A stretch of DNA of 6,185 nucleotides from a virus (taxonomy: Duplodnaviria > Heunggongvirae > Uroviricota > Caudoviricetes), in IMG/VR virus record IMGVR_UViG_2778261570_000026; one strand, written 5' to 3'. Position 1 is the first letter of the stretch. Each line of letters begins with the position of its first letter. The notes beneath the pieces were generated by a model. That model made no database searches and was not told the origin of the DNA. It was given only the letters and a program-made list of their open reading frames with translations. The position numbers and the translations under genes were made by a program. Positions 84-6,185 of the stretch are shown here, in pieces.

Positions 84-383
84 ATGAAACAGAAAATTTC
101 TGGCTTTACTGCCAGCGGCCCCGCTCGGCCTGAAATCCACCCCGGCGATATTTTCCGGGATAACTACGGCGGCACGGTAACGATAAAAAGCGTGGCAGGA
201 CGGTGCGTTACTTACCGCCGTGATGGGTACGGCTATGACTGTGTGATGCCTGTTTATCAGTTCCGGCGTGATTTTTCACTGATACAGGCCACACCACGCA
301 AACAGCCCACCAGCAACGCAAAGGCACAGGCAAATATTCAGAAAATGAAAAACATGATTAACGCATTCAGGGGCAAAAAATGA
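84..383 (+). CDS. Hypothetical protein (99 aa), translationally coupled to the replication gene
   Basis: ATG at 84 is preceded by GAGGA at 71-75 (8-nt spacer). The stop TGA (381-383) overlaps the ATG of the next gene (380-382) in an ATGA junction. I recognise no family for the protein. Confidence 0.55.
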   Translation: MKQKISGFTASGPARPEIHPGDIFRDNYGGTVTIKSVAGRCVTYRRDGYGYDCVMPVYQFRRDFSLIQATPRKQPTSNAKAQANIQKMKNMINAFRGKK

Positions 384-1795
384 AACTGGCACCGAACTTA
401 AAAAAACAGCCACACGACAAAATGACCGAAGTCATTATTTTTGCGGGTAGTGATGCCTGGGCGCACGCGAAACAGTGGCAGGAACAGGACGGACGACTTG
501 CTGGCGACAACGTGCCACCTGTATGGCTTGGAGACAGCCAGCTTGACGAACTGGCAGACCTGAAAATCATCGACGATGGTCGCTATTGTGTCCGGCTGTA
601 CAAGGCAGGCCACATCAAGCCGTCAAATATTAATGCCATCGGGCAAAAACTGGCGGCGGCAGGTGTACGGGATGCGAATTATTACCCTGAGGGAATGCAC
701 AGCCAGAAGCTGGAGAACTGGCACGACTACCTGCAACGGATCCGCGAACAGGCAGAGCGCGGGGAAATTCTTACTGACGAGCAATACAGCCAGCGAAAAA
801 CCACGCTACCAATGAGTATTGGATCTGCAGGGTACGACACACAGCTTGATTATGTCGTTAAGGGCGTGATTCCGGCTAATTCATTGTGCAGCACATACGG
901 CGCGAGCGGTTCCTATAAATCGTTCCTCGCGTGTTCCTGGGCGTGTCATGTTGCCACGGGGCGCCACTGGGGAGGCCGCAGGGTTGCGCATGGTTCGGTG
1001 ATGTATGTCGTCGGTGAAGGGGGGATAGGTGTCCCCCGTCGTATCAAGGCATGGGAAATCGTTAATGATAAACGGGTGGAAAATCTGTACCTGGTAAATC
1101 GCCCGATTTTTCCGGCGGTCCCGCTTGATGTTGATGAGATGGTCATCGCTTCCCGTCAGGTTGAACGGGAAACGGGTAAACCGGTACGCATGATTATTCT
1201 GGATACGCTGGCGCGTTGCTTTGGCGGTAATGATGAAAATGACGCGCGGGATATGGGGGCGTTTATCCGTGGATGTGACGAACTGAAACGACGCACAGGG
1301 GCCACGGTACTGGTGGTTCACCATTCCGGCAAGGATGAAACAAAGGGGGCGCGTGGTTCCAGTGCATTTCGTGCATCTCTGGACGCTGAATACCGTATTC
1401 GCCGTGAAGGTGCGGACAGTGAAGCCCTGGTTATCTCCTGCACCAAAATGAAGGATGCGGAGGAACTGAAAGAGGCTGCATATGATTTACGCGTGGTGGA
1501 GCTTTTTACCGACACTGACGGGGAGTTAATCACGTCGCTGGTGGTTGTGGATAAGCCGCGCCCACCTGTTGAACTGGAACGCATCGAGGAAGCCGGGAAC
1601 AAGACGGAGAATCACGCCGCGCTATGGGGCTGTATCCGTTCACGCACACAGCGCGGCGATAAATGCACTATCCCGTTGTTGCGTGATGATATGAAAAAGC
1701 TGGGGTATGAGATGAAACACTTCCGGCGCTGGCTGTACAAGCTGGAAGGTGATGGCGTTATTGCTATTGACGGTGATGACGTGCGCCCACTGTAA
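380..1795 (+). CDS. Replication initiator/helicase-type protein: RepA-like RecA-fold P-loop NTPase (AAA_25-like) with a ~140-aa N-terminal domain
   Basis: 471-aa ORF. C-terminal half carries a P-loop-like segment (TYGASGSYKSF), a Walker-B-like hydrophobic strand ending in Asp (RMIILDTLA) and a VVHHSGKD motif, matching the pattern of RSF1010-RepA/AAA_25-type replicative NTPases in phages and plasmids. An iteron array begins at its stop codon. Family assignment is from motif reading only. Confidence 0.75.
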   Translation: MKLAPNLKKQPHDKMTEVIIFAGSDAWAHAKQWQEQDGRLAGDNVPPVWLGDSQLDELADLKIIDDGRYCVRLYKAGHIKPSNINAIGQKLAAAGVRDANYYPEGMHSQKLENWHDYLQRIREQAERGEILTDEQYSQRKTTLPMSIGSAGYDTQLDYVVKGVIPANSLCSTYGASGSYKSFLACSWACHVATGRHWGGRRVAHGSVMYVVGEGGIGVPRRIKAWEIVNDKRVENLYLVNRPIFPAVPLDVDEMVIASRQVERETGKPVRMIILDTLARCFGGNDENDARDMGAFIRGCDELKRRTGATVLVVHHSGKDETKGARGSSAFRASLDAEYRIRREGADSEALVISCTKMKDAEELKEAAYDLRVVELFTDTDGELITSLVVVDKPRPPVELERIEEAGNKTENHAALWGCIRSRTQRGDKCTIPLLRDDMKKLGYEMKHFRRWLYKLEGDGVIAIDGDDVRPL

Positions 1796-1990
1796 AAAGT
1801 GGGTAGTAAAAGTGGGGAGTGTGGGGAATTTAACAAAATTGAAACGCGATTCCCCACTTTCCCACCTGTATATACCCCAAAAAGTGGGGAGTAAAAAATA
1901 CATTGAAAAACATCACGTTAGAATCACAAAAAAAAGAAGTGGGGAGACGTTGGGTAATTTCAAAAAGTGGGTAGTAAAAGTGGGGAGCAG
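1794..1990. repeat. Iteron-type replication origin (candidate ori)
   Basis: Direct copies of AGTGGG(G/T)AG at 1798-1806, 1811-1819, 1883-1891, 1938-1946, 1966-1974 and 1979-1987, with degenerate copies at 1820-1828 and 1949-1957. One inverted copy (TTCCCCACT) at 1850-1858. A perfect 26-bp direct repeat (AAAAAGTGGGTAGTAAAAGTGGGGAG) at 1794-1819 and 1962-1987 bounds an A-rich stretch (about 1892-1937). Sits in the non-coding gap right after the rep gene. Confidence 0.7.
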
Positions 1991-1996
1991 TGAGGA

Positions 1997-2248
1997 ATGA
2001 CCAGAAAAACCAGAGATAAGACAGCGCCAAAATATCGCGCATTAGACATGACAGAGCACGCCTTAAAGGTGGCAATCAGAACGATAGACCGCCATGCCGG
2101 GGAAGGATACGCGAAAGCACATCCCGAACTGATAAGCGCATTCATGACCACAGCGGCGGCAAACTTTGCCACGCTGACCGAAAGGGAGATTGCCGAAGCG
2201 GAACAGGTGACAACCATCAACGTTAAAACCGGAGAGCATACAGCATGA
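1997..2248 (+). CDS. Hypothetical protein (83 aa), translationally coupled to ssb
   Basis: ATG at 1997 has GGGGAG at 1982-1987 upstream (9-nt spacer). Stop TGA (2246-2248) overlaps the ssb ATG (2245) in an ATGA junction. No recognisable family. Confidence 0.5.
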   Translation: MTRKTRDKTAPKYRALDMTEHALKVAIRTIDRHAGEGYAKAHPELISAFMTTAAANFATLTEREIAEAEQVTTINVKTGEHTA

Positions 2249-2667
2249 CAGCACAGATAGCGGCTTACGGGCGGCTGGTGGCTGACCCGCAGTTAAAGAC
2301 CACCAGCAAGGGAACACAAATGGCGATGGCGAGTATGGCGGTTCCCCTGCCGTGCAGCCAGGCCGATGACGGAACGGCGACGATGTGGTTATCCGTCCTG
2401 GCGTTTGGCAGACAGGCCGACGCACTGGCCAGACACCACAAAGGCGAACTGGTGAGCGTGGCGGGTAACATGCAGGTAAGCCAGTGGACAGGCCAGAACG
2501 GCGAAACGCGGCAGGGCTGGCAGGTTATCGCAGACAGCGTAATCAGTGCGCGAACGGCGCGACCGGGCGGCAAAAAAGGCCAGCAGGGCCAGGCTACTGA
2601 CGCACTGAACAGGGCAAAACAACAGGCGGGAAATGATGCCCCGTACGGGGATAACATATCGTTTTAA
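2245..2667 (+). CDS. ssb: Single-stranded DNA-binding protein (OB-fold SSB family)
   Basis: 140-aa protein that aligns by eye with the E. coli SSB OB-fold: GRLVADPQL vs GNLGQDPEV, WLSVLAFGRQAD vs WHRVVLFGKLAE, KGELVSVAGNMQVSQWTGQNGETRQ vs [24 protein letters not shown]. Short Gly/Gln-rich tail ending in DNISF, resembling the SSB C-terminal DDDIPF tip. Confidence 0.8.
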   Translation: MTAQIAAYGRLVADPQLKTTSKGTQMAMASMAVPLPCSQADDGTATMWLSVLAFGRQADALARHHKGELVSVAGNMQVSQWTGQNGETRQGWQVIADSVISARTARPGGKKGQQGQATDALNRAKQQAGNDAPYGDNISF

Positions 2668-2924: not shown

Positions 2925-3131
2925 ATGGGAACACAGAAGCCGGGCGGTGTATCCGTGTACATCAGCCCCGATATTATCGCCGCACTTAATGCGCGCTTTG
3001 AGGAGAACGCAGAGGCAGGGAAAAAAGTCGGCCTTGATCCGTTGTGCATGGTGAAGCCGTCAGTCGGCTGGATGGTACGCAGTCATTTACGCGCTGCGCT
3101 TGGCATGAATCAGCCTCATGGGGGTGAGTAA
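2925..3131 (+). CDS. Small protein (68 aa) directly upstream of and coupled to the major capsid gene; function unknown
   Basis: Strong RBS AAAGAGGAA (2909-2917), 7-8 nt before ATG 2925. The ORF-track start at 2859 would place the N-terminus inside the predicted promoter and has no RBS. Stop TAA (3129-3131) overlaps the ATG of the capsid gene (TAATG). Confidence 0.55.
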   Translation: MGTQKPGGVSVYISPDIIAALNARFEENAEAGKKVGLDPLCMVKPSVGWMVRSHLRAALGMNQPHGGE

Positions 3132-4186
3132 TGACAGCGCTGCAACTGGTAAGCACACCAACGCTACTGAAAAATATCGGGCGCGAAGATGTGCCGGAAT
3201 TTAAATTTAATCCGCTCTTTACGACGCTGTTTTTTCCGAATATCGCCACGTTCAGTACGCGAGATATTGCGCTTGATACGCTGGACATTGAAAACGTGGT
3301 CATGAGTCCGTTTTGTTCACCAATGTCAGGCAGTCAGGTTATGCGTGACAAAGGTTTTACAACGAACACTTTCACGCCGGGTTATATGAAGCCCAAACAC
3401 GTTATTGATCCCACTAAAACAATCATGCGCATGGCTGGAGAACAGATCGGCAATGGTCAGTCTTCCCCGGCACTACGCCGCGTAAAAATGGTTCACGACA
3501 GCCAGAAAAAACAGCTTGCTGCCATCAAAGCGCGTGTTGAATGGCTGGCGGTCAATGCCATCACAACAGGCCGTAACGTTATCGAAGGCGAAGGCATTGA
3601 GCGTTATGAAATTGACTGGGGATTACCCGCAACCAATCACATTACACAGGCTGGCGGGAAAGAATGGTCAAAACAGGATGCCGAGACGTTTGATCCGATA
3701 AGCGACATTGAGGCTTACGCTGATTTTTCCGAAGGTACGGTAAATATTATCGTCATGGGTGGCGAAGCCTGGCGTATTTTGCGCTCGTTCCGTCGATTCC
3801 GCGAACTCCTGGACACCCGCCGCGGTTCAAACTCGTCACTTGAACTTGCGCTAAAAGATTTGGGCGGTGTTGTCAGCTTCAAGGGGTATCTCGGTGATGT
3901 GGCGCTCGTGGTTTATTCCGGTCGTTATGACGACGAAAACGGGCAGCAGCAATATTTCCTGAAACAAAACATGATGGTTTTCGGCAATACCGAAAATAAA
4001 GGTCTTGTTGCTTATGGTGCCATCATGGATCAGGACGCGGCACGCGAGGGATTTTCTGAGGGGATGTACTACCCGAAAAATTATATCGTACCGGGCGATC
4101 CGGCGATTGAATACGTGCAGACGCACAGCGCCCCGCAGCCAGTACCCGTGGATATTGGTCGCTTTGTTACCGTCGAAGTGAAATAA
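3131..4186 (+). CDS. Major capsid protein, phage lambda gpE family
   Basis: 351-aa protein with long collinear blocks matching lambda gpE as I remember it: KFKF(N/D)PLF, (E/T)FTPGY(V/M)KPKH, ITQ(S/A)GG(T/K)EWSK, DIEAYA, VNIIV, DTRRGSNS, VS(Y/F)KG, GDVA(I/L)VVYSG, YPKN, GDPA. Length is also close to gpE (341 aa). SD-like GGGGGTGA lies just upstream. Confidence 0.9.
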   Translation: MTALQLVSTPTLLKNIGREDVPEFKFNPLFTTLFFPNIATFSTRDIALDTLDIENVVMSPFCSPMSGSQVMRDKGFTTNTFTPGYMKPKHVIDPTKTIMRMAGEQIGNGQSSPALRRVKMVHDSQKKQLAAIKARVEWLAVNAITTGRNVIEGEGIERYEIDWGLPATNHITQAGGKEWSKQDAETFDPISDIEAYADFSEGTVNIIVMGGEAWRILRSFRRFRELLDTRRGSNSSLELALKDLGGVVSFKGYLGDVALVVYSGRYDDENGQQQYFLKQNMMVFGNTENKGLVAYGAIMDQDAAREGFSEGMYYPKNYIVPGDPAIEYVQTHSAPQPVPVDIGRFVTVEVK

Positions 4187-4196
4187 AGGGGATCGT

Positions 4197-4526
4197 ATGC
4201 CAACACCTTACACGCAATTCCTTTCCGGCACGCAGGAACTGGTCAGCACGCTGGCCTGTTTTGCCAGTGCCGGAGAAATTAAAGCGAGAACTCCGCTGAT
4301 GCAGAACGGCGCGGGCCTGATGGTTGAGTGGGACGGTACACCCGGTAAGGCGGTGTATCTGACCATATCGGACATTAACACGGCCACAAAAAACCGCGCA
4401 CAGGTTTATAAGTGCGGGGTTTTTAATATCGATGAAATTAACTGGCCTGATACAGCGGACACGTTCGAGAAAAAAGTGTCGGCTTTTGTTGGTTCCGGTA
4501 TTTCCGTGCAGCCTTTAGGGCAATAA
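4197..4526 (+). CDS. Head decoration protein, lambda gpD-like
   Basis: 109 aa (lambda gpD is 110). Shares TPLM, WDGT, YK.G.F, WP and KK..AF.G..IS blocks in the same order as gpD. RBS AAGGGGA lies 4 nt before the ATG. Sits immediately downstream of the capsid gene. Confidence 0.7.
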   Translation: MPTPYTQFLSGTQELVSTLACFASAGEIKARTPLMQNGAGLMVEWDGTPGKAVYLTISDINTATKNRAQVYKCGVFNIDEINWPDTADTFEKKVSAFVGSGISVQPLGQ

Positions 4527-4540
4527 TTTTGTGGTGATTT

Positions 4541-4966
4541 ATGACTGAGAAAGCAAATTCAACCAGAGCATTGATCATGGCACTGCCTGAGGCGCAGAAA
4601 TACCCGACGCTTGCGGAAAATCTCGCAAATAATGGCGCATCACTGACAGAAGCCCGAACGGTGCTTACTGCAAAGGCTGAGAGTGATAAACAGCGCATAG
4701 AGGGTATCAAGGCGTTACCGCTGGCATCAAAATACCCTGAGTTCACCAGTAAGCTGATTGAGTGTGGTTCTGAAGTAATGACAGTAACCTATGCACAAAC
4801 GTTACTGGCTGCCGTGGATGCCCAGGCAATGATGCAGGAAAAGAAAACGGCTTTTCTGTTTGATGCGTACATGGAAAAGCACAGCCCGAAATGTGTTGGA
4901 CCAGCAGCCGGTGATGGCAACGCCGGACTGACCGAAGATGAAAAGCTGTTGCTGTCTGTTAAGTAA
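4541..4966 (+). CDS. Hypothetical protein (141 aa) with an internal tandem duplication; last gene of the capsid operon
   Basis: Co-directional, tightly packed after the gpD-like gene and followed by a terminator. Contains two related ~33-aa modules (LPEAQKYPTLAENLANNGASLTEARTVL and LPLASKYPEFTSKLIECGSEVMTVTYAQTLL). No recognisable family. Confidence 0.6.
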   Translation: MTEKANSTRALIMALPEAQKYPTLAENLANNGASLTEARTVLTAKAESDKQRIEGIKALPLASKYPEFTSKLIECGSEVMTVTYAQTLLAAVDAQAMMQEKKTAFLFDAYMEKHSPKCVGPAAGDGNAGLTEDEKLLLSVK

Positions 4967-4980
4967 CTGAAATGAACGTT

Positions 4981-5012
4981 CGCGAGGTTGGCAAGGCCTC
5001 GCGATTTTTTTT
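4981..5012 (+). terminator. Rho-independent terminator closing the capsid operon
   Basis: Stem CGCGAGG (4981-4987) pairs with CCTCGCG (4997-5003) around a 9-nt loop, followed by a T8 run (5005-5012). Confidence 0.7.
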
Positions 5013-5022
5013 GTGTCCGGAA

Positions 5023-5128
5023 CGGTGGTGATCACCCCAATTTTCACGGGTCCTTTCCGGAACCTGAAACACCGGGGGTACGTGTACGCGCAAAAACGCG
5101 CTATTTATGACGCTTTCCGGGAAAGGGT
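5023..5128 (+). repeat. Left copy of an inverted repeat (~100 bp) upstream of the Nu1-like gene
   Basis: Core 5065-5110 equals the reverse complement of 5793-5838 at 40 of 46 positions with no gap, including a perfect 17-mer (5086-5102 = reverse complement of 5801-5817). Weaker similarity extends to about 5023-5128. Contains the palindrome GGTGATCACC (5027-5036) and CTTTCCGG motifs (5053-5060, 5113-5120). Confidence 0.6.
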
Positions 5129-5177
5129 ACACCACCACCACTTGATTAATATTTAATCGCATTATTAAGGTAACGTT

Positions 5178-5618
5178 ATGAATAATAAAGATTGTTTTGT
5201 TAGTCAGCAGGAAATAGCAGAACATTTCAAGGTCAACAGAACCACTATTCGCGCATGGACCAAACAGGGCATGCCGTATCTTGATGCGGATCGCGGAAAG
5301 TCCGGCGGTTATCACATCGGACACACATTATTCTGGTGCATGGGTAAAAGTCATCTTGATGCTATTGAGTACCACGGAGAAACCAGCGCACTGGAAAAGA
5401 TTATGGTTGCCAGGTTGATTTCATCAGAGCGCGACGAGTATTTCAGTGAAGAAACAGAACAGCGATTTGATAATGGTCTGCAGATTTACGGGTACTCGCC
5501 GGAAGATGTGAGCAAGGCACGAAATAAAATGGCTGGCTTTCTGGCTGGGTGGCGTCATGCCGTAGCCGTTCGCCGTGAGCATCTGCAACAATCTGTAGTT
5601 ACAGAGCAGGAAAGCTAA
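5178..5618 (+). CDS. Nu1-like winged-HTH DNA-binding protein: candidate terminase small subunit or packaging-specificity factor
   Basis: 146 aa. The N-terminus (VSQQEIAEHFKVNRTTIRAWTKQGMPYL) closely parallels the lambda Nu1 DNA-binding N-terminus as remembered (KKQLADIFGASIRTIQNWQEQGMPV). The remainder is not recognisably Nu1-like and the protein is shorter than Nu1. No large terminase gene follows. Nu1-like HTHs also occur in small regulators, so the function is uncertain. Confidence 0.55.
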   Translation: MNNKDCFVSQQEIAEHFKVNRTTIRAWTKQGMPYLDADRGKSGGYHIGHTLFWCMGKSHLDAIEYHGETSALEKIMVARLISSERDEYFSEETEQRFDNGLQIYGYSPEDVSKARNKMAGFLAGWRHAVAVRREHLQQSVVTEQES

Positions 5619-5627
5619 TAAGTATGC

Positions 5628-5720
5628 AATACAACAACCGCGTATTTTTGTTAAACCATTTGATTTAATTGGTATTTTTGGAACCATAACATCAAAAAAA
5701 CGTCCTCAGGTTGTTGTATT
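5628..5720. repeat. AT-rich structured non-coding region downstream of the Nu1-like gene
   Basis: 12-bp perfect inverted repeat AATACAACAACC (5628-5639) / GGTTGTTGTATT (5709-5720) brackets two direct repeats GTATTTTTG..AACCAT (5642-5659 and 5672-5687). A third ACAACAACC copy lies at 5768-5776. Confidence 0.45.
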
Positions 5721-5774
5721 TCTTTCAGTTTTCTCTTAGTTATCAAATGGATATAACAAACAATTAAACAACAA

Positions 5775-5880
5775 CCACCCTTCCGAAAAATCTCATAAAC
5801 AGCGCGTTTTTGCGCGTCCCATGACCCCCGGTGTTTCATTTTCCAGGAAGGACCCGCCACAATTACGGCATTGTTTCCCA
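5775..5880 (-). repeat. Right copy (inverted orientation) of the repeat flanking the Nu1-like gene
   Basis: Reverse complement of 5793-5838 matches 5065-5110 at 40 of 46 positions. Flanking similarity is weaker (about 17 of 30 in the outer arm). Confidence 0.6.
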
Positions 5881-5900: not shown

Positions 5901-6185
5901 ATGACCGAAGCCGAAATGCTCAAAATGATTCGCCGCGTTACCGGAGCCAACCAGGCAGCAGGCAAACAGGAGGCCACGCAGCCGGACAGCGTGATAGCCG
6001 AAAATTACGCGCGTGTGGTGGCTGAGGTGATGCGCCGTGACGGTATTGAGCTTAACGGCGTGGATATGCGCAATATATGCACCAGAGTTCTGGAGATGTT
6101 GTCATACCGTCGCCGCGTGCAGATGTACCAGGAGAAAGAAAAAATTACTTACCACTGGAAGAAGCCGGAGCGGTTACGACGTTAA
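5901..6185 (+). CDS. Hypothetical protein (94 aa)
   Basis: ORF is in frame from 5871, but GGAGG (5888-5892) gives a good spacer only for ATG 5901; ATG 5895 is 2 nt after the SD. Stop TAA is at 6183-6185, the window edge. No recognisable family. Confidence 0.5.
   Translation: MTEAEMLKMIRRVTGANQAAGKQEATQPDSVIAENYARVVAEVMRRDGIELNGVDMRNICTRVLEMLSYRRRVQMYQEKEKITYHWKKPERLRR

Follow-up and report, generated by a model that had tools for sequence, protein, structure and literature searches.

Proteins of the Rpp family, named for 'redirecting phage packaging', are encoded by phage-inducible chromosomal islands (PICIs) found in E. coli, and three of them, RppA, RppB and RppC, block the reproduction of phages lambda and phi80 (PMC6739421). 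Phages escape through mutations in their TerS, Rpp was shown to bind TerS by two-hybrid and pull-down experiments, and transfer of the island EcCICFT073 needs both rppA and phage terS (PMC6739421). In the RppC structure a lambda-TerS-like N-terminal winged helix–turn–helix (HTH) is joined to a C-terminal helical dimerization domain, and in the co-crystal 6HN7, with lambda TerS 1–98, the Rpp DNA-binding domain replaces the second TerS domain, giving a TerS–Rpp2–TerS complex (PMC6739421). RppA lowers the transfer of plasmids carrying phage cos and raises that of plasmids carrying island cos1, the RppA-dependent specificity being mapped to cosB of EcCICFT073 cos1; the RppA mutants R21A/T22A lose targeting, L51D loses TerS binding and F121R loses dimerization, and RppA and RppC do not cross-dimerize (PMC6739421). 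A review of the mechanism found no conserved TerL-binding motif in Rpps (PMC9026076).

EcCICFT073 has been published with two cos sites, and its transfer by lambda and phi80 needs cos1, not cos2. Phage cosB could not be identified in the island in the 2018 and 2019 papers (PMC6092414, PMC6739421), and deletion of its capsid and decoration homologues did not relieve interference, packaging taking place in phage-sized capsids (PMC6092414). In staphylococcal pac-type islands the SaPI pair of TerS and Ppi has the same outcome, in that the helper can no longer package itself and its TerL packages the satellite (PMC6739421). SaPIs divide the work between a TerS of their own and Ppi, which inhibits the phage TerS, whereas Rpp combines both jobs and needs the phage TerS.

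The window gene encodes an Rpp protein, very probably RppB

We analyzed a 6,185-nucleotide stretch of viral DNA (IMG/VR record IMGVR_UViG_2778261570_000026), here called the window, and within it the gene whose features and surroundings are collected in Table 1. Searched against the PDB with phmmer, its product matched RppC (6HLK/6HN7) with E=1.5e-33 over residues 1–135 of 146. Protein identity amounts to 84% with EcCICFT073 RppA, 92% with a sister allele of 146 aa and 42% with RppC, and the DNA at 5099–5615 is 86.6% identical to E. coli CFT073, whose counterpart is RppA (c1503) of EcCICFT073 (Fillol-Salom et al. 2019, PMC6739421). RppB as given in Fig. S1C of that paper has 146 aa, from MNNKDCF to VTEQEN; read from the figure by machine, it differs from our product at about six positions at most, some of them evident misreadings. 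On the strength of these matches we regard the gene as an allele of rppB, and we have high confidence, from sequence comparison, that it encodes RppB and would act through the TerS of a helper. It is therefore an already known protein in an already known arrangement, and its identification amounts to an annotation correction, a useful one because RefSeq labels the product 'hypothetical' or 'helix-turn-helix domain-containing protein'.

Each of the four residues that were mutated in RppA (R21, T22, L51, F121) is kept. Residues 8–35 and 37–51 are identical to RppA, with position 36 being D here and N in RppA. The DNA-reading residues R21, T22, R25, K29, R39 (wing, K or R) and K41 are present along with the TerS-mimicking L51, as are T23 and W27, and Q30 is as in RppA. 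RppC shares R21, T22, T23, R25, W27, K29, K41 and L51 and a long C-terminal helix with a G120/G124 pattern, but the window protein is 7 residues shorter and has changes at the dimer interface, such as N116 for G118 and H127 for L129, in line with the published lack of cross-dimerization between RppA and RppC. Single-sequence AlphaFold2 gave one long helix (residues 108–145) and a mean pLDDT of 44.3, too poor for a fold search, and for this reason the fold is predicted from sequence homology to the crystal structure.

Pfam and NCBIfam have no Rpp model; the product gave only sub-threshold HTH matches in Pfam, NCBIfam and PADLOC, and Rfam gave no match. Exact peptide words, which detect close relatives only, found none in the one-genome-per-species contigs. 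The phage collection yielded no Rpp by megablast of the window, blastn of the cos arms or tblastn of Rpp, and only the cos region was matched, in SerU-LTIIb and one other record.

Table 1. Positions of features in the window, with matching segments in other records (L numbers) listed last
Feature	Position	Strand	Remarks
RepA-type helicase	380-1795		
SSB	2245-2667		
gpE-like major capsid protein	3131-4186		Pfam Phage_cap_E, E=2.9e-47
gpD-like decoration protein	4197-4526		
Scaffold-like protein	4541-4966		resembles the scaffold portion at the C-terminus of head maturation proteases
Terminator-like hairpin	4980-5004	+	10 bp stem, T8 tail; between scaffold-like gene and cos1; single match, not above shuffle expectation
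Left arm of 82-nt inverted repeat	5039-5120	+	cosQ-cosN-proximal part common to cos1 and cos2
cos1	5048-5141	+	island-type, directly upstream of rpp
cos1 cosQ	5048-5054	+	heptamer GGGTCCT
cos1 cosN, inferred cohesive end	about 5077-5088	+	GGTACGTGTACG; register +/-1 nt, by alignment to lambda
cos1 cosB, candidate Rpp site 'R3-PICI'	5124-5141	+	AGGGTACACCACCACCAC; bp 48-65
ACCACCACC			associated with candidate Rpp-TerS target 5124-5141
rpp ORF	5178-5618	+	ATG start, 146 aa
rpp product, N-terminal winged-HTH DNA-binding domain	about residues 1-64		
rpp product, C-terminal helical dimerization/TerS-contact domain	C-terminal half		alignment to 6HLK runs to residue 135
cos2	5631-5855	-	second cos, inverted, downstream of rpp
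cos2 cosB, three R-like elements	5631-5639, 5709-5717, 5768-5776	-, +, -	GGTTGTTGT
Right arm of 82-nt inverted repeat	5783-5864	-	counterpart in cos2
cos2 cosN, inferred cohesive end	5815-5826	-	GGTCATGGGACG
cos2 cosQ	5849-5855	-	GGGTCCT
94-aa ORF 3' of cos2	5901-6185	+	ATG 5901; ends at last base of window
Prophage cos regions matching window cos2	L008 4001-4228; L010 4011-4241		
EcCICFT073 cos2 and prophage cos regions matching it	L005 7520-7765; L011 and L012 about 3453-3680		

Resemblance to small terminases

The original prediction had taken the ORF for an orphan with a Nu1-like N-terminus and no adjacent large terminase gene. The N-terminal likeness is real: lambda Nu1 aligns with residues 8–47 at 35% identity (BLASTP, pairwise E=8e-6), and PHROG 57, 'terminase small subunit', matches at residues 2–46 only (E=2.4e-8). 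As far as sequence comparison reaches, however, the resemblance is limited to the N-terminal winged HTH. Pfam Phage_Nu1 (PF07471) scored 14.1 bits against a cutoff of 30, over profile positions 3–32 of 164, and the regulator families were sub-threshold as well. When aligned with Nu1 of lambda and with four TerS proteins from prophages or islands, the product lacks the Nu1-type C-terminal oligomerization/TerL-binding region and stops before the PLSxQRxFP...LLxEYI block, the roughly 35–50 C-terminal residues common to Nu1 homologues. The idea that the C-terminus recruits the large terminase thus has to be dropped, since the C-terminal half corresponds to dimerization and TerS-contact helices and the Nu1 block is missing.

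The predicted surroundings were borne out, with 282 nt free of annotated genes (about 280 bp had been stated) and then the 94-aa ORF. A terL is present neither in the window nor anywhere in the full-length island of strain P393-F10, where the chromosomal yejO comes next after that ORF. 'Orphan' is nevertheless the wrong word, because cos1–rpp–cos2 without terL is the published layout of such islands. The downstream ORF, which has 104 aa when started at TTG 5871, matches PHROG 1561 (unknown function) and has as its homologue the last gene of EcCICFT073; RefSeq carries the same 94-aa ORF in the 96.5% identical island.

Lambda gpNu1 (PF07471; PDB 1J9I) and the window protein share a winged HTH (35% over 40 residues) and a gene position just after cosQ–cosN–cosB. 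They differ in that rpp lacks the C-terminal oligomerization/TerL-binding region and an adjacent terL; lambda has the elements R3-I1-R2-R1, whereas window cos1 has one R-like element, and Rpp dimerizes through a different surface. In the prophages compared terS overlaps terL, whereas rpp in the window has no terL directly downstream.

These comparisons bear on whether the gene could encode a genuine but shortened small terminase, which would bind the flanking repeats, recruit the helper TerL by its C-terminus and replace the helper TerS in the manner of SaPI TerS. The Nu1-like winged HTH and the location directly downstream of a cos site would both fit such a protein, as would a sister island (L007) that has a 194-aa lambda/21-like TerS at exactly the position of rpp. 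We nevertheless consider it very improbable: the conserved C-terminal region of Nu1 homologues is missing, Phage_Nu1 is far under its threshold, the review found no conserved TerL-binding motif in Rpps, and RppA, at 84% identity, needs the helper TerS for island transfer, with escape mutations falling in TerS and the co-crystal showing Rpp complexed with TerS. Less probable still is a transcriptional regulator of the island of the MerR/BldC/excisionase type, unrelated to packaging, given that all such matches are under the curated cutoffs and cover the HTH only, that over its full length the product matches Rpp proteins whose role in packaging has been demonstrated, and that rpp is placed between two cos sites, where a morphogenesis-like module ends, outside the regulatory module.

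Genomic context of rppB

A 96.5% identical copy in P393-F10 (L001) covers the whole island, which runs from tRNA-Pro through an integrase, a small HTH regulator, Icd-like genes, DUF4222 and the RepA-type helicase to SSB, the gpE-like capsid protein, the gpD-like decoration protein, the scaffold-like gene, rpp and the last small ORF. Terminase (terL), tail and lysis genes are absent from this complete island, which encodes a capsid module (window 3131–4966) but has no portal, protease or terminase. The island has the features of a PICI, namely an integrase at tRNA-Pro, a regulator, a replication module of its own and no terL, tail or lysis genes. The gene order of EcCICFT073 matches from DUF4222 through the last ORF, which makes the window the right-hand half of a PICI of the EcCICFT073 type.

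RppA/RppB and EcCICFT073 (PMC6739421) are in accordance with the window in protein length (146 aa), DNA-reading and interface residues, the cos1–rpp–cos2 arrangement, gene order and the cosB-PICI element. In contrast, EcCICFT073 adjoins phoQ, whereas the window island lies at tRNA-Pro/yejM–yejO. EcCICFT073 also has a primase where the window island has a RepA-type helicase, a lambda-class cosQ–cosN where both window sites are of another class, and a cos2 cosB of the CATGTCCGG type where window cos2 is of the GGTTGTTGT type. The exchanged replication proteins are a 471-aa RepA/AAA_25 helicase in the window and a 584-aa primase-family protein in EcCICFT073 (L005 1662–3416), and the DUF4222 and SSB genes flanking them are common to both islands. 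Directly after the helicase gene (window 1793–1987) stand three copies of AAAAAGTGGG(T/G)AGTAAAA spaced 83–85 nt apart, two of which extend to 26 nt; they are probably iterons of the island replication origin.

The terminator-like hairpin ahead of cos1 also precedes cos1 in EcCICFT073 and in record L006. A simple scan found no sigma-70-like promoter for rpp.

Two cos sites flank the gene

An 82-nt inverted repeat with 79% complementarity flanks rpp. A 45-nt cos-like core pattern occurs in the window exactly twice, at 5066–5110 (+) and 5793–5837 (−), against 0 expected by chance. Both sites were identified by alignment to lambda cos and to EcCICFT073, and the nick positions come from alignment only. 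The repeated segment is, as read from these alignments, the cosQ–cosN of two cos sites, that is, the TerL cutting and termination signals, and the likely Rpp site accordingly lies just outside the repeat, at about 5124–5141. The original prediction had offered the flanking repeats as candidate recognition sites; the repeats exist, but the part that is repeated is cosQ–cosN and not the candidate Rpp site.

With bp 1 placed at 5077, the ATG of rpp falls at bp 102, as is published for PICI-C (PMC9026076). In all the rpp loci examined the same cosB-PICI segment, ACACCACCACCACTTGATTAA, stands upstream of the gene, regardless of cosN type. The ACACCACCACCAC element is likewise unchanged 5' of each rpp examined, and its region is the Rpp site as proposed by Murialdo and Feiss (PMC9026076).

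Downstream of rpp, cos2 is by alignment a complete phage-type cos with cosQ, cosN and cosB, beyond cosQ–cosN alone. The window holds three copies of GGTTGTTGT against 0.07 expected by chance, and they run direct/inverted/direct, as do lambda R3/R2/R1. Two lambdoid prophages have cos regions that match cos2 over ~230 nt, with about 82% (L008) and 81% (L010) identity and E about 1e-57 to 1e-60, and in both prophages the terS, terL, head–tail joining and portal genes lie directly downstream of the matching cos.

The stretch of EcCICFT073 cos2 that begins at cosQ and ends with the third CATGTCCGG element gives a close alignment to the cos upstream of terS–terL in prophages of EDL933 and THO-008, and the cosB part alone has 89.0% and 85.6% identity to these prophages (blastn). 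We also considered EcCICFT073 cos2 as a match to the natural helper phi4 and rejected it, the cosB of phi4 being of the 21-type, CATGTCGG (Fig. S5, PMC6092414).

Proposed mode of action

The rpp product is a satellite packaging-specificity factor that either derives from the DNA-binding domain of Nu1 or mimics it. The original prediction was right about the kind of protein, as the family match shows, and wrong about the partner, which genetics and the 6HN7 structure identify as the helper TerS and not TerL. For the allele and island of the window, TerS binding, interference and cosB recognition can be put forward by analogy with the literature. By homology to RppA, RppB and RppC, window RppB would homodimerize through its C-terminal helices. 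Upon induction of a lambdoid helper, its winged HTH would replace one TerS DNA-binding domain to give TerS–Rpp2–TerS, a complex that would no longer read the phage cosB, so that phage packaging would be blocked. The same complex would instead read the island cosB downstream of cos1 (about 5124–5141), and the TerS partner would bring the helper TerL to cut at the island cosN (about 5077–5088), directing island DNA into helper capsids.

The homology of cos2 to the cos of prophages of another lineage leads us to infer a second, Rpp-independent route with a different helper lineage. In this scheme cos2 would be a full packaging site acquired from another lambdoid prophage lineage and no degenerate duplicate. 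Helpers whose TerS can be captured by Rpp would use the Rpp-dependent cos1 route, while helpers whose own TerS reads the cosB of cos2 would package the island from cos2 without Rpp. The scheme would hold for EcCICFT073 too, where cos2 matches the cos of EDL933-type prophages. We offer it tentatively, as a possibility slightly more apt to be wrong than right, together with the suggestion that the variable cosN hints at rapid adjustment to local helpers. Beyond the known RppB, the homology of cos2 to prophage cos and the variability of cosN provide modest new leads.

A non-lambda cosN class and the choice of helper

At both window sites cosQ–cosN reads ACCGGG/GGTnnnnnnACG/CGCAAAAACG, compared with GTTACG/GGGCGGCGACCT/CGCGGGTTTT in lambda, EcCICFT073 and several sister islands; the comparison took in records L001, L013–L015, L007, L008, L010 and L004 and the window. 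The ACCGGG/GGTnnnnnnACG/CGCAAAAACG class is common to phage SerU-LTIIb and prophages L008 and L010, and in it the cosQ-to-nick spacing is 29, versus 30. The inferred cohesive-end interiors within the class are GGTACGTGTACG, GGACGGCAGACG, GGGCGGCAGACG, GGTCATGGGACG and GGTAGCCATACG. These six interior bases vary even among islands that are about 98–98.5% identical across the region, and cos1 and cos2 of one island differ in them.

Since both window cosN sites differ from the lambda GGGCGGCGACCT, lambda and phi80 may not be helpers of this island. In the L008 and L010 prophages the N-terminal domain of TerS is unlike that of lambda TerS at the positions published as the interface (I11/F12 and S43/A44/I47/Y50/A51), and for this reason binding by window RppB is not assured.

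The 168–169 aa TerS proteins of L008, L010, L011 and L012 are nearly identical over their C-terminal two-thirds and have unrelated N-terminal DNA-binding domains, each of which fits a different type of cosB repeat. Exchanged TerS N-termini with matching cosB types indicate, from sequence, that packaging specificity may be exchanged as modules among lambdoid prophages.

Module exchange among sister islands

Across the islands, the Rpp/cosB-PICI module is constant, while the cosQ–cosN and cos2 modules are swapped with different prophage lineages. Such swapping suggests a way for islands to gain further helpers or to change from one helper to another, and could account for the second cos site.

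Three sister islands show further variants. In EC21Z-144 (L017 133–1523) the cos1–rppA–cos2 cassette is turned around with respect to the scaffold-like and last-ORF genes on either side, and the encoded proteins match those of CFT073 exactly, which suggests that the inverted cos repeats recombined with each other. STEC2018-607 (L009 3600–4260) has lost rpp apart from an inverted piece of its 3' end, about 70 nt long, which lies between two phage-type cos sites with cosB of the GGTTGTTGT and CATGTCCGG types. In STEC313 (L007 3078–4099), whose capsid module is nearly identical to that of the window island, the 194-aa TerS in the place of rpp is 53% identical to Nu1; it is preceded by a cosB with CATGTCGG elements and followed by a cos2 with lambda/SerU-like R elements.
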